DNA of 64,000 nt from Candidatus Poribacteria bacterium (GTDB lineage Bacteria > Poribacteria > WGA-4E > WGA-3G). Below, piece after piece: positions 612 to 6,245 of this stretch (position 1 is the first letter of the stretch; each line of letters starts with the position of its first letter). The notes under the pieces are model-generated. The model saw only the letters and a program-made list of their open reading frames with translations, searched no databases and was not told the DNA's origin. The position numbers and the translations under genes are program-made. The DNA lies in the NCBI GenBank assembly GCA_963663765.2, contig CAXXUA010000005.1:192001-256000 (forward strand), written 5' to 3'.

Positions 612-2771
612 TCATGATTTCTTTTGGGGGACGCCGCCGATGTGCTTTTCAGGGTCCCATTTTTCTTTTGGAATGCCCATTGCCCAGAATAGGTGTTTGC
701 CGGTGCCGACAGTGCTGTTTTCTTTCTGACTTAGCAGCAGATAGGCTGTGCTGTCTATGCCGTGATGGTCGCCTTTTATTGCCTCGTCGTCTTTGCCGGT
801 ACCCGTGAGTTTTTCTTCGTAGGTGCAGGTTAGGAACTCATCGGTGACGTCAAGAGGACGATATTCGTTTCTGAGGTCTTCGTCGGGGTCGTAGACAAAT
901 CTTTCACGGAAGAAAGAGATTACGGGTTTGCCTGTTGAGTCTACCCTTAGACGTTGTTTGATGATGTCGATTTGCGCGATACGCGATTTTTTGGGTTCCT
1001 GTATTCTGAATCCTGCTTTGCGAAGCTGCGCGATTTCGTCTTGGTCGGCATTGTCTACGGAGACATATCTGAAAGTTTCGTCATCCTTGCAGTTTGCTTT
1101 GATAAGTTCTATAGAATTCGGGGACTGTGAGTTTTGTTTTGTATATTTCTTTGTATGAATAGAGGCGTTTGGCTTTGTCGCGTGCCCACCAGATGCAACT
1201 TGCTGGATTTCGGAAACCCCAGTCTATACTCAGGTAGCGTACCCATTTTTTTGGGATTTTGAAGTTGTCAATGATGTGGATGTCTGGTGAGAATTTCTCA
1301 AATACGAGTCCTTCTGCTGATACCCACACGCCTTCGTAGCCACGTTTGTATCGCATGCCTTCAAGGTTTCTCAGTTTTTCCACACGTCTGTGAGTTCTCC
1401 AGTTTCTTGGTCGTAGATTTCGGGGTTGTCCCTGTATGTTATCTCAAAGTATTCAATTTTTCCTGCTTTGGTCTGTTGGCGATTCCAGTGGTTCGGTGTA
1501 CTTGGGTTGCAGTCGCCGAGTAGGAATGCAATTGGGAGGACTCCTGTCCGTTCGGAAACTCTGGCGGTGAGTTCGTCCCATCTGTCAAAGGTTAGGAGTT
1601 CCGCTTGGTTGACGAAAGCTGCGTCGAAGAAGTCGCTGAGAAGGTTATTGGTTTTGTCAAGACCGTTCATGTAAATTCTGCTTCCGTTCCAGTATTCGTA
1701 AAATGAGGGTTGTTCGCCACCGTATTTTGCGATGGGTGTTGGGTTCGGAACGTCTATCCTTTTGGGTTTGAAGCCGAGATATTTTTCGTAGGTTGGGATG
1801 ATATTGTGAAATATTCTGTTATGGTATCTGTGGATGAAGGTGAGTCGTGCGCCGGGGTAGTTTCTTGCGAGGTGGTCTATGTATGCGACGCAGCTAAAGG
1901 TTTTGCCTGCGTCATAGGTGCCGCCGACTATTTTGACGGGTGCGTGTGAGTTGAAGACATCCTGCATTTGTCCGTAAGGTTTGAAGCCTTTCGGGTGGTA
2001 TTGGATGATGGGTTTGGGTTGCTTGAGGATTGTTGGTTGATCGGTGATTATTCTTATGTTTTGATCAATGGTATTGTTTTCTGTATCGGGGTTGGAAACC
2101 CCTCTCACCAGAGGTTCGGGGAGGTTCTGTTCGTATTCCTGTATGTCGTGGTGCAGGTGTATAAGTATTGGTGGGTTTTCGGTTTCGGTTGCGTTTTCAT
2201 GTTCTAAGGCGAGTTCTTCCTTTTGATATGCCTTTCGTGTGATGGTTGCTTTGGTGTCGTAGCCGCGTGTTTCTATGTTTTCGCGCCTTGTGTGAATGTC
2301 ATAAGAGCGAATCTCTCTGTCAAAATCGTCGATGTAAAAGAATAATTCCTCAATGTTATTTTTTGGATCGAAGTTTTCTTTAATCGCTAATATGCTTTCA
2401 TTGGTGTCTTCTAACTCTTCAAAATGATGTTGTTCTACCGTAGCATAGATATCGTATTCTCCAGGTTCTGGTCAGTCTTTGTTTTTGTCTGCACGCATTT
2501 GCGTTATGATCGTGGCTGCTTGTTTCTTGTTCAGAGATTGTTTGTAGCTTACATAGGCGTTGGTGTCAAAGCCGCGCGTTTCTATGTTTTTTCTTTTTTT
2601 CATGATGTCATAGGTGCGCGACAATCTATGTTTTCGTTGTTTTGCCTTTTTTAGGAGTTTCAGGTCATCTGGGGTTTTTTTCCCTTTTTTGAAGTGTCTG
2701 ATTACATCATGGATTATGTTCCAAAGTAATCTATAGACTTCAAATTGGCGTTGGAAGGTTTGTTGTTGCAT
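612..2771 (-). pseudogene. Disrupted phage terminase large subunit (PBSX/Terminase_6-like) with a long N-terminal extension
   Basis: ORF 2771-2472 reads in frame through one TGA into ORF 2108-1371 (Walker A GTYDAGKT, Walker B-like AAFVNQAE, coupling motif DCNPS). A frameshift near 1383 leads to the nuclease part (SIDWGFRNP). A 1-nt insertion near 1111 leads to a frame ending ...GDHHGIDSTAYL...QKKS* at 612. Confidence 0.85.
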
Positions 2772-3188
2772 GTTTTTGTCCTCAAAGGTTTGTTAGGAAT
2801 GAAGCACAAACTAACAGTTTGTGCTTCAAAGATCAGTAATGATGTTATTATTATAATTGGTGGTGGGATATGGATGGGAGGTTATGTGGGGATGAGGACA
2901 AGGGATTTACAATAGATATACATTGGATTTGGAGGATTGTCTGAACCAAGATTTGCAGATTTTCAGGATAAGACATCTGCATCTGATTTTATAGCATAGA
3001 ATAAGCATTTTATAAGTAAGACGATTATTGGTGCAATCTTTTCCGTGTCATCTGTGATTTTGTCTGAACCAGGATGGACAAATCAACGGTATGAATGCCT
3101 TATGGCATTCCCCGGGATTTTGAGATTTTCAGGATTTACCCCATCAAGGTTTTTGAATTGTGCATTTCGCGTCATCCATGATTCAGAA

Positions 3189-3312
3189 ATCGGGGTTGGA
3201 AACCCCTCCCACAAGAGGTCAATATCCTTAGATTGACGCCTATGGTGCGGTTTCCTAACCGTACCATTTACCGGGTATTAGGTATGGTATGGTTAGGAAA
3301 TCGCACCTACCG
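3189..3312. repeat. Composite REP-like element (TCGGGGTTGGAAACCCCTCCCAC plus GGTGCGGTTTCCTAACCG inverted pair)
   Basis: The same units recur in the 33816-34127 element and at about 17750. Confidence 0.8.
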
Positions 3313-3430: not shown

Positions 3431-4999
3431 GTGGAAGACATTTTGAATCACATAAAACGCTACAGATATTTGCTTGCAGTATGTTCTGGTGTATTATTGT
3501 TTTGCAGTTTTCCCAGTATTAATTTCTTTCCACTCACATGGGTGAGTTTAGTTCCGTTGTTGTTTGTGCTTGCGTGTGCTGATGATTGGAAGGCAGCGTT
3601 TCGTATCGGTTATGTGTCAGGATTGGTATTTTTCGCTGGTTTGTTAATTGCAATTGCGCTTCTTTATCCTTATGCGAACATCTGGACGACTGCGCTTGGA
3701 TACTTGCTATTAGTTGGTTATACTGCCCTCTATATTGCGTTATTTGCATTGTTTGTGTATCGGTTGCCGTGGCAATCTGGGATATTATATCCGTTATCGG
3801 TTGCTTTGATTTGGGTAAGTTTAGAATGGGTGCGCGGTTGGTTGCTTACTGGTTTTCCGTGGGGTTTCATTGGGTATTCACAGTGGAACTATCTACCTGG
3901 GATTCAGATTGCATCACTCACTGGTGTGTATGGTGTGAGTTTTGTGATAGTGTTTTTTAATGCTGGGATTGTAACGTTAATTCGTAATAGACGTGCGTGG
4001 CGTAAGGAGGTTGTTGCATTTGCTGTACCGTGCGTCCTAACTATTGCAACGTTTGTGTATGGATATGTTGTGATTGGTAAGGGACAAGAGGTATCAGGAG
4101 ATAGTGTAAAGGTTGCGCTTGTGCCGGGTAATATTTCTCAACTTGAGAAATGGGAGCTTGATAGTTTTCAGAAGATCTTCTTTAAGTATCTGAATCTGAC
4201 GGAGCAAGTTGCAGCGGAAGGTCCGGACATTATTGTTTGGCCTGAAACGACAGTAAGAGGGCAGATATTGTCTGGTGAATGGGAAAATTATCACATGTAT
4301 TTTGAGCGGACTCATAGGAAAATTAGTAGAATTCCGATGTTGATTGGTGCGACAGATCCTGATACGATGGGAGATGTATATAATCGTGTGATTTCAGTAT
4401 CTTCGGAAGGTGAGATTCTTGGTAAGTATGCTAAGATGAAGTTGGTTCCGTTTGGCGAATATGTGCCGTTAGGAGATTTTCTTCCGAATTTTATTCAATT
4501 TCAACCTTATACACATGGTAAAACGGTTGATGTTTTGCCAATTTCAGAAGTCAAAGAATCTACGTTAGAAGTAGGCACATCAATTTGTTTTGAGTCAGCG
4601 TTTCCGGATCATTTTCGTCAGTTCGTTAGAAAAGGAGCAGATATGATGGGTATTCTTACGAACGATGCGTGGTTTTCTGGTACTGCGTTTCCTGAACTGC
4701 ATTTAGCGATGGCTTCGTTTCGTGCTGTGGAGAATCGGATTTCAGTGTTTAGGTGTGCGAATGGTGGGTATTCTTGTGTGGTTGATCGTTTCGGTCATAT
4801 CTATACGCCGTTTGTAGCGCCTGGGACGTCTGAAGAATACTTGGTTGCGGATATTGCATTGAAAGATGGAAACAACACAATATATACTCGTTTTGGTGAT
4901 TGGTTGCCGATACTTTGTTTTGTAATTTGTATATTTTGGATTGCTTATCGGTTAATTAACAATTATTATGTCATCAAATTTACTGACCTTAACAACTAA
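3431..4999 (+). CDS. lnt: Apolipoprotein N-acyltransferase
   Basis: Multi-TM N-terminus, GFPW motif, nitrilase-fold triad motifs WPET, KMKLVPFGEY and ICFES, plus TNDAWF and RAVEN. Confidence 0.95.
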   Translation: MEDILNHIKRYRYLLAVCSGVLLFCSFPSINFFPLTWVSLVPLLFVLACADDWKAAFRIGYVSGLVFFAGLLIAIALLYPYANIWTTALGYLLLVGYTALYIALFALFVYRLPWQSGILYPLSVALIWVSLEWVRGWLLTGFPWGFIGYSQWNYLPGIQIASLTGVYGVSFVIVFFNAGIVTLIRNRRAWRKEVVAFAVPCVLTIATFVYGYVVIGKGQEVSGDSVKVALVPGNISQLEKWELDSFQKIFFKYLNLTEQVAAEGPDIIVWPETTVRGQILSGEWENYHMYFERTHRKISRIPMLIGATDPDTMGDVYNRVISVSSEGEILGKYAKMKLVPFGEYVPLGDFLPNFIQFQPYTHGKTVDVLPISEVKESTLEVGTSICFESAFPDHFRQFVRKGADMMGILTNDAWFSGTAFPELHLAMASFRAVENRISVFRCANGGYSCVVDRFGHIYTPFVAPGTSEEYLVADIALKDGNNTIYTRFGDWLPILCFVICIFWIAYRLINNYYVIKFTDLNN

Positions 5000-5004
5000 T
5001 AGGA

Positions 5005-5126
5005 CAGGACTTATGTATTTTTCATGATTTCATCAAGAATTATGACGAAAATGATGTAAGTATCAGCATTTTTTAGGTTTCCAGCGTGCTTACAAAGCTC
5101 GCATACCGTTCGGTACGTAAGTCCTG
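5005..5126. mobile_element. MITE with CAGGACTTACGCA-type terminal inverted repeats (family A)
   Basis: Ends CAGGACTTATGTA...TACGTAAGTCCTG; interior shared with copies at 9963, 11715, 23899 and 24281; imperfect 6-bp flank duplication ATAGGA/AGAGGA. Confidence 0.85.
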
Positions 5127-5137
5127 AGAGGAGATAA

Positions 5138-6245
5138 ATGTTAACAGATTTAAAGCCTGCAGTTGATTTAGTTACTACGAGGCTTCATGAGCTTCGGGGG
5201 TATCTTTGACCTTCCGACGAAACAGCAAGAGTTAGAGGAACTTGAAAAAGAGACGATGTCTACAGGTTTTTGGGGTAACTCTCAACGAGTCCAAACTGTG
5301 CATCAACGTATTTCAATTCTTAAAGAGGAAATAGGAGAATATGACAAGTTAAGTAGTGCGATTGATGATTTACAGACATTACTTGAGCTTGGCATAGAAG
5401 AAGATGAGGAGAGCATAGAATCAGAGATTCAGAATGGGTTATCCATTGTTAATAAGAAGTTTGAGAAGCTTGAACTCCAAATCATGTTGGATGGTGAGTT
5501 TGATGAGAACGATGCGATTCTGAGCATTCATCCGGGTGCGGGAGGTGTTGATGCGCAGGATTGGGCAGGCATGTTGATGCGTATGTATCTGCGTTGGTGT
5601 GATCAGCGTGGTTATGCGACTGATGTTGTTGATCTGACTGCAGGTGATGAGGCAGGTATCAAGGGTGCGACATTTTTGGTGAAAGGCACTTTTGCGTATG
5701 GTTACCTGAAAGCAGAATCCGGAGTGCATCGGCTTGTCAGACTTTCTCCTTACGATTATAACAAACGGAGGCATACATCTTTTGCAGCATTGAAAGTTAC
5801 GCCTGAGATTGACGATAGTGTTGAAGTAGAGATCAATGCTGAAGATCTTCGGATTGATTGCTATCGTGCGAGTGGTGCTGGTGGTCAACATGTGAATGTG
5901 ACGGATTCGGCGGTACGTATTACACATTTGCCGACTAACATCATGGTGCAATGCCAGAATGAACGTTCACAGCACAGAAATCGTGAAACTGCTATGAAGG
6001 TGTTACGTTCGCGTTTGTATAATCATTTTAGGGCGCAACAAGAGGCAGAACTTGCTAAACTTCAACCGGAGAGAAGGGATATAGATTTCGGCAGCCAAAT
6101 CCGTTCTTATGTGTTACATCCGTATCAACGTGTGAAAGACACCAGAACAAATGTTGAAACTGGTAATGTTGATGCTGTCTTGAACGGTGAAATTCATGTG
6201 TTTATTGAGAGTTTTTTGAAAATGAAACCTACAGAAACGAAATGA
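5138..6245 (+). CDS. prfB: Peptide chain release factor 2 with programmed +1 frameshift
   Basis: ATG at 5138 after GAGGAG; codon 23 CTT followed by TGAC at 5204-5210, preceded by SD-like CGGGGG; GGQ motif and SPY recognition loop (SPF in E. coli). Confidence 0.97.

Follow-up and report, generated by a model that had tools for sequence, protein, structure and literature searches.

What is a phage packaging gene doing alone in a bacterial chromosome? The large terminase subunit (TerL) is a hallmark gene of the virion module and serves as a marker when prophages are called. A gene of this kind, extended at its N-terminus and broken, lies at 612-2771 on the minus strand of the stretch of Candidatus Poribacteria DNA analyzed here (G000:C5:192001-256000; hereafter the window, 64,000 nucleotides). 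We consider, with a probability of roughly 0.75, that the gene was inactivated recently and belongs to a family restricted to Poribacteria, which was derived from the packaging genes of a Poribacteria phage and exapted as a solitary terminase. An earlier inspection of the letters alone (the sequence-only reading) had proposed a solitary, N-terminally extended and pseudogenized TerL, belonging to a domesticated family or to a dispersed element. The proposal was supported by the conserved join between extension and TerL and by the solitary, multi-copy relatives.

One reading frame with three lesions

When the minus strand was translated in three frames, a single collinear TerL reading of about 720 codons was obtained from 2771 to 612, which confirmed the joining of separate fragments into one gene. 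The reading starts with ATG at 2771, is interrupted by a TGA at 2474-2472 and then goes on unshifted as far as 1374. Another frame carries the protein over 1443-1084, the first frame carries it again over 1223-615, and the stop codon occupies 614-612. In the PHROGs database, the three downstream pieces were all recognized as large terminase (phrog_2, E = 1.1e-10; phrog_5653, E = 4.7e-13; phrog_6672, E = 3.8e-5), and the sequence matched the D6E TerL structure with E = 1.3e-9. An intact relative was likewise assigned to phrog_2, with E = 9e-32. No Pfam family was matched above the cut-offs by the window pieces (the N-terminal piece included) or by the relatives; the matches to Terminase_3 and Terminase_3C were sub-threshold. 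We refer to the whole (612-2771, about 720 codons as it stands) as the TerS'-TerL pseudogene, as delimited by the translation, the PHROGs matches and an alignment with a paralog. The ATPase and nuclease motifs that had been called recognizable were located by script, namely Walker A GGTYDAGKT at 1925-1899, SIDWG at 1230-1204, VDNAD at 1058-1038 and HGIDS at 773-741.

The lesions were placed by nucleotide alignment of the window copy with its paralog on contig C11 of the same genome. The first is the in-frame TGA (2472-2474), where C11 has the sense codon GCA and P0002, an intact ortholog with 70% identity, has Gly in the same column; the suggested origin from TGG is thus unsupported. The second, previously seen as a frameshift near 1383, is the loss of 13 bp between 1386 and 1387. 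The third, which had been placed near 1111, is an extra base at 1113 (T on the gene strand). Between these two sites runs a shifted-frame segment (1114-1385), which encodes the domain linker and the start of the nuclease domain. A further gap, of 9 bp and in frame, near 2081 is harmless.

Contigs from four public sequencing runs, which came from two studies, were compared with the window. Those of runs X2 and X3 cover 1006-1471 with 0 differences and 0 gaps, and that of X1 covers 968-1471 with 0 gaps. The deletion is polymorphic, since the X4 contig retains the 13 bases behind 1386. As X4 carries the extra base at 1113 without the 13-bp deletion, the 1-bp insertion is probably the earlier of the two events. 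No variant at 2472-2474 was seen among the 40 matches listed out of 89.

Assembly errors, or recoding through read-through of the TGA plus two programmed frameshifts, would mean that the gene is really intact. The frame changes do cancel each other (minus 13, plus 1), and the expected protein sequence is preserved in the shifted segment. However, both frame changes are reproduced in the run contigs of two studies, one run has the undeleted allele, and at these sites the C11 paralog has sense codons, its own lesions being different. The intact relatives are read without any recoding. Moreover, TGA ends the window gene as well as the phage genes upstream of TerL, and a release-factor gene adjoins. 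We therefore regard an intact gene as extremely improbable, and the window copy presumably does nothing.

The C11 copy is about 90% identical to the window copy and lies at a contig end. It is broken by two TAA codons, an insertion sequence (IS) resembling IS630 (domains DDE_3 and HTH_32) and a 1-nt deletion. Each of the two copies reads through the breaks of the other, so both derive from a single long frame with the extension in it. The ratio of non-synonymous to synonymous substitution rates (dN/dS) between them is 0.10 in the core (dS = 0.27) and 0.32 in the N-extension. The core ratio indicates that most of the divergence is older than the inactivation. As dS varies from 0.08 to 0.42 among segments, the two copies look mosaic.

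Relatives and selection on the intact copies

With the read-through protein as the query (X at the TGA), 217 proteins were found at E <= 1e-3 among 2970 candidates. The best relative, P0002 (737 aa, 99% coverage), is intact and has the N-terminal module twice. An extension with a single module is present in some 30 other proteins of 595-690 aa, and a large class of about 480 aa matches the TerL core only. The in-frame join was conserved in 30 aligned full-length proteins (595-737 aa, P0002 among them). Four rows named by NCBI read 'hypothetical protein [Candidatus Poribacteria bacterium]', and a JGI row bears the label 'phage terminase large subunit'. In the genome collection, each of the 29 close loci was titled Candidatus Poribacteria, and the intact fused family was found only in these sponge symbionts. 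A scan of viral contigs with exact peptides of a G005 protein gave no relative.

The family is patchily distributed. In a first draw that included the window's genome (G000), matches were present in 10/41 genomes, with 9/24 in the window's genus and 0/16 in three other families of the order. In the whole taxonomic family, again including G000, 33/112 genomes had a match: 17/39 in the window's genus (g1), 14/65 in the sister genus g13 and 1/3 in genus g9. G052 had seemed to share the stop codon of the window gene, but its open frame is simply truncated where the contig ends.

Intact full-length copies numbered from one to seven per genome. G005 has seven intact open reading frames (ORFs) of 599-608 aa and G021 has six of 621-641 aa, and they are scattered on single-contig chromosomes. 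Neither the C11 copy nor any of these 13 is flanked by phage genes; the 13 are dispersed among intergenic repeats resembling repetitive extragenic palindromic (REP) sequences. When the neighboring ORFs of the 13 loci were clustered, no conserved partner emerged and no cluster was common to more than a few loci. The sole recurrent neighbor was a short ORF in the seven G005 loci, which looks non-coding.

Nucleotide identity of the core is 93-96% within a genome and 81-83% between G005 and G021. Over 398 core codons, dN/dS is 0.018 within G005 (dS = 0.29, 21 pairs), 0.049 within G021 (dS = 0.21, 15 pairs) and 0.098 between the two genomes (dS = 0.84, 42 pairs). Seven flanking host orthologs compared between the same genomes have dS of 0.50-0.81. 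The intact copies are thus under very strong purifying selection, with dN/dS of 0.02-0.05 within genomes.

A second dispersed phage-like family, with a weak match to DUF2280 (E = 0.024), was also noticed in these genomes. It has three full copies in G005 and six in G021, one of them (L026:6232-6927 in G005) 1.4 kb downstream of a TerL copy, and none in G000. Both families occur in 14 genomes of the window's genus, TerL alone in three, the DUF2280-like family alone in four and neither in 18, although these genomes are related and not independent.

Origin of the N-terminal extension

In the sister genus g13, TerLs of about 480 aa were found inside head modules (loci L067, L070, L072 and L074). 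There, an upstream gene of 198-216 aa precedes TerL, and a portal gene (phrog_3753, 3e-8), a protease gene (phrog_80) and a major head protein gene (phrog_3922, 1.6e-13) follow in this order. The upstream gene stops one or two codons before the ATG of TerL, in the same frame. Its product has an N-terminus predicted to form a winged helix, together with a helical hairpin and an RGYD motif. Extension-less homologs in head modules thus exist in g13. The sequence-only reading would have been refuted had they been the only homologs, but solitary copies with the extension occur elsewhere.

Twelve N-extensions were aligned with five of the upstream genes by hhalign (probability 96.4, E = 1.4e-9, 121 columns). 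The alignment spans residues 84-204 of 207 and includes the RGYD motif and a C-terminal '..LP' motif. The first 83 residues of the upstream gene, which are winged-helix-like, have no counterpart in the N-extension. A pairwise BLASTP comparison of extension and upstream gene gave E = 5e-5. These alignments indicate that the extension is the fused C-terminal two thirds (about 120 residues) of the gene upstream of TerL, the winged-helix part having been lost. The fusion to TerL seen in the sequence-only reading stood, and the extension is not a new domain. The upstream phage gene itself had no PHROG match at E <= 0.001 and a weak match to the AbiEi winged helix (0.0012).

In the window, N-extension module 2 (2118-2471, minus strand; NIETRGYDT at 2279-2253 and HLHHDIQEYEQNLP at 2159-2118) is homologous to the C-terminal part of the upstream phage gene. 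Module 1 (2475-2771, minus strand; 99 codons forming a long helical hairpin, with NIETRGFDT at 2588-2562) is an extra, duplicated module, seen only in the sublineage of the window copy, the C11 copy and P0002. A REP-like sequence of the GGGGTTTCCAACCCC type (2085-2105, minus strand) lies in frame in the linker, where it is read as RGVSNPD; P0002 lacks it. The 'GRSDLRNA' linker repeats of other family members may likewise be REP-derived.

A quick maximum-likelihood tree (the careful search was unfinished) was rooted at the midpoint and its branches were assessed by the Shimodaira-Hasegawa-like approximate likelihood ratio test (SH-aLRT). Twelve phage-type rows, three of which were labeled by sequence type only, were separated from 33 solitary rows (SH-aLRT 100); P0067 was left out by the motif filter. 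The 30 fused rows formed one group (SH-aLRT 99), so the fused form had a single origin. At the base of this group were three extension-less solitary rows, and such copies, of 456 aa, are also without phage neighbors.

The history of the family reads as follows. In the phage, which is still seen as the head modules of g13, the upstream gene and TerL are separate, with no more than a stop codon and one or two further codons between them. In the window's genus, TerL is fused to about 120 C-terminal residues of the upstream product, and the winged-helix part has been lost. The fused gene persists alone, with a short upstream block and amid REP-like repeats, with no portal, capsid, integrase or partner gene nearby. 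Its copies are homogenized within each genome and recombine with one another, and whole lineages lose the family.

The window gene could instead be an ordinary remnant of a decayed prophage with no wider meaning. It does descend from a phage terminase and is broken here, and decayed portal genes of the same phage lineage occur in three genomes of the genus. This explanation, however, does not account for thirteen intact solitary copies in two genomes under strong purifying selection, nor for the single origin of the fused form. Nor is there any other phage gene within about 12 kb on either side of the window copy, and the genome holds four separate family loci. We consider it very unlikely.

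Structural genes of the related phage were also sought in carrier genomes. The Pfam portal (PF04860) and HK97 capsid (PF05065) families were matched in 0/5 genomes. The portal and capsid proteins of the g13 phage itself were missing in four of the five genomes searched (G000, G005, G021 and G022). In the fifth, G024, a decayed remnant of the head module of the related prophage lies at G024:C1:4446219-4452373, where the capsid gene is open and the portal gene is interrupted by two stops. No TerL match adjoins the remnant, and the TerL copies of G024 are more than 2.5 Mb away. Across the taxonomic family, 20/112 genomes had a portal match. Five of these were among the 39 genomes of the window's genus; three had stops and all five had TerL. 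Twelve of the 17 TerL carriers in this genus had no portal match.

History of the dispersed copies

Several loci share flanks between G005 and G021. The upstream flank is common to L024 and L028, to L027 and L033, and to L025 and L029, and the downstream flank is common to L024 and L033. At L026 and L030 both flanks are common and the gene is inverted. Yet no copy is nearer to its positional counterpart than to the paralogs of its own genome. Such a pattern is that of old loci whose copies have been subject to gene conversion and reshuffled by recombination with one another. G057, a relative of G021 with 92-93% identical flanks, has two broken copies only, both at shared loci, and one of them differs in its type of N-extension from the copy that G021 has at this locus.

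The main rival explanation is that the intact gene is the sole gene of a new selfish mobile element, with the terminase as transposase or homing enzyme, and that the window copy is a dead one. Such a gene might home or transpose among REP arrays, or might act as a 'pirate' that starts packaging at its own locus, into the capsids of infecting phages, and would thereby transfer itself along with neighboring host DNA. Several features are consistent with it. One to seven dispersed copies occur per genome, in 17/39 genomes of the genus, and some lineages have lost all of them. In G005 the sequence common to all copies runs from about 70 nt before the ATG to 2-5 nt past the stop. The inverted gene at one shared locus would also fit, assemblies break at TerL copies, and, like some IS families, the copies are located in REP-like arrays. 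ISPpu9 is reported to insert into REP sequences (PMC8450116).

However, neither terminal inverted repeats nor target duplications were found in alignments of the seven G005 and six G021 copies or at the window locus. The sequence common to the G021 copies takes in about 135 nt before the gene and up to about 40 nt after it. No clean empty site was found in the loci compared either; in G057, the flanking regions of two G021 loci have been rearranged or lie where contigs end. The flanks of the window gene are non-adjacent in five relatives, and the site C5:883376-883486, which has the flanking repeats without the gene, is a paralogous site. The near-identity within a genome that is expected of IS copies was not observed (93-96% at the nucleotide level, dS = 0.21-0.29), and old neutral insertions with a dS of 0.2-0.3 would not have kept dN/dS at 0.02-0.05. 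Flanks common to two species with a dS of 0.5-0.8 between their host genes point to inheritance with gene conversion. In addition, the duplicated unit in G005 includes more than the gene, as six of the seven copies have a 440-585-bp composite of repeats upstream. A one-gene selfish element is therefore unlikely in our view.

Predicted fold and catalytic motifs

Among the intact relatives, P0014 was modeled with AlphaFold2 from 101 sequences. The mean predicted local distance difference test score (pLDDT) was 69, with about 80-90 in the core (residues 240-660). In the extension, the model has a long helical hairpin at residues 30-107 (pLDDT 73-90) and a disordered linker at 130-236. A Foldseek search with this model gave whole TerLs as the best matches, D6E first (6.5e-21) and then Sf6, T4 and HK97. 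The predicted fold of P0014 is accordingly that of a TerL, with two domains, an additional-strand catalytic glutamate (ASCE) ATPase and an RNase H-like nuclease. A model of P0002 built from 30 sequences was rejected, as its core was unusable (mean pLDDT 47.5).

The ATPase domain of the window copy (1387-1990, minus strand) contains Walker A, FVNQAE (1616-1599) and CNPSTPNHW (1511-1485). The motif SIDWG lies in the shifted-frame segment. The rest of the RNase H-like nuclease domain and the C-terminal tail follow at 615-1112, with VDNADQD at 1058-1038 and GDHHGIDSTAY at 773-741. Walker A GGTYDAGKT is invariant. SIDWG, VDSAD/VDNAD and HGIDS, which we take to be the catalytic nuclease motifs (SIDWG presumably bearing the first catalytic Asp), are invariant or nearly so in both the 30-sequence and the 101-sequence alignments.

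The strand expected to carry Walker B ends in Asn-Gln-x-Glu (window 1599-1616; P0014 alignment 359-366), which is invariant in 101 sequences and unusual at this position for a packaging ATPase. The same residues were found in TerLs inside real head modules. At this position the HMMER alignment to D6E is ambiguous. Since the phage-type members share it, Asn-Gln-x-Glu seems to be a trait of the lineage and not a sign of inactivation.

Possible function of the intact proteins

Because Walker A, the acidic nuclease motifs and a phage-like C-terminal tail are conserved, the intact proteins are probably active ATP-driven DNA translocase-nucleases. The motifs and the tail argue for an enzyme that would still meet DNA, and perhaps a portal. 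We tentatively suggest that the intact proteins act during infection by related phages, either by interference, in which phage DNA would be cut or mis-packaged, or by piracy of capsids for host DNA. Such a role is possible, though we hold it at less than even odds. What is left beside it and the selfish element goes to other host functions.

Several observations weigh against an exapted solitary terminase, or against a phage-linked role for it. No partner gene is conserved beside the 13 copies of G005 and G021. PADLOC assigned the three fused proteins searched to 0 defense families, and the loci lie outside defense islands, among housekeeping neighbors. The several near-identical copies per genome, the patchy occurrence and the positions at synteny breaks would also fit a selfish element. 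Most carriers have no related phage or capsid genes, so that a phage-linked role must rely on infecting phages not observed here. The presence of Asn-Gln where the Asp-Glu of Walker B is expected leaves the ATPase chemistry a prediction. Finally, position is what suggests the name 'TerS' for the upstream phage gene, which matched no known TerS profile.

The family would represent either a new host use of a packaging motor, for instance in phage interference or host DNA transfer, or a terminase that became the engine of a selfish element. In practice, prophage calling in the genomes of sponge symbionts will mistake such genes for prophage signals.

Surroundings of the window gene and other loci in the genome

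As stated by the sequence-only reading, no portal, capsid, small terminase or integrase gene flanks the window gene. Its neighbors are all non-phage, namely genes for a solute-binding protein, UDP-glucose dehydrogenase, a DUF309 protein, an IS transposase, Lnt, a release factor and Uma2. The release-factor gene (5187-6245) has PCRF and RF-1 domains, and its listed ORF begins approximately at the RF2 frameshift position. RF2 genes carry a programmed frameshift, and a short frame upstream of this ORF may belong to the release-factor gene.

The 5' leader of the window gene contains a hairpin with a perfect 11-bp stem (2801-2827, minus strand), followed upstream by a 113-bp block (2849-2961, minus strand) with a TATAAT-like hexamer at 2855-2850. 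Gene and block are bracketed by copies of a repeat unit of about 105 bp, one at 451-554 and the other a direct repeat at 2950-3052 with 81% identity. A promoter and terminator scan of the window gave counts not above those of shuffled sequences and no site at the conserved TATAAT, and Rfam gave sub-threshold, chance-level matches only. Short intergenic repeat families resembling REP sequences or miniature inverted-repeat transposable elements (MITEs) were seen at 189-560, 2849-3270 and 4985-5137 of the window and genome-wide, some with more than 100 copies.

The upstream block has exactly four copies in the genome, which mark four family loci. Besides the window and C11 copies, there is a 5' stub (C6:278612-278831), in which the block, the leader and the first 7-8 codons are kept and then an IS starts. 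At C5:883376-883486 only the block is left, with a common REP-type palindrome in the gene's place. All four loci are dead. In the C11 copy, the leader hairpin is interrupted by an insertion of about 1.1 kb of tandem repeats; these repeats (G000:C11:3545-4660) read as 'GALTKHACRWGAVGG'-like units in all frames. At G000:C5:186572-187933 (window -5428 to -4067), there is a DDE_Tnp_1 IS whose 1362 bp match a copy on contig C4 at 99.4% identity; it was therefore probably active recently. The IS that cuts the C6 stub is a different one, and its end resembles MITE ends near TerL in G005.

Comparison with known systems

In titles and the openings of abstracts, we found no description of solitary or domesticated terminase genes of such a kind. 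The Poribacteria family breaks the usual TerL pattern in that the terminase is alone, fused to part of its upstream partner, present in up to seven copies per genome and without a capsid to fill, while selection on the intact copies is as strong as that on core genes.

The best match of the family in both sequence and fold is the D6E-like Terminase_3 TerL (PDB 5OE8-5OEE). The two share the ATPase and the RNase H-like nuclease, with Walker A, an FNP..HW-like motif and three acidic motifs. The family differs in having no adjoining portal or capsid gene, a fused extension, several chromosomal copies, Pfam scores below the cut-offs and Asn-Gln at Walker B. The related Poribacteria prophage of g13 is closer, with a TerL core about 60-65% identical, the same C-terminal tail and an upstream gene homologous to the extension. 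There, however, the two genes are separate, the upstream product has its winged-helix N-terminus, TerL has an insert of about 24 residues, and portal, protease and capsid genes follow.

RAYTs are REP-associated domesticated transposases. Like them and like IS110-type REP-targeting elements, the family is a single enzyme gene derived from a mobile element, located among REP-like repeats and without terminal inverted repeats, but the protein family is unrelated. Satellites such as Staphylococcus aureus pathogenicity islands (SaPI) and phage-inducible chromosomal islands (PICI) carry integrase, replication and regulation genes, and usually TerS rather than TerL. They resemble the present case as packaging-derived chromosomal genes that could act on helper capsids, whereas here there is a lone TerL fusion. 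In gene transfer agents of the RcGTA type, the entire head-tail cluster is retained, and it includes one terminase gene. As in the Poribacteria family, a phage terminase is kept by the host under purifying selection, but the Poribacteria family has several terminase copies and no structural genes.

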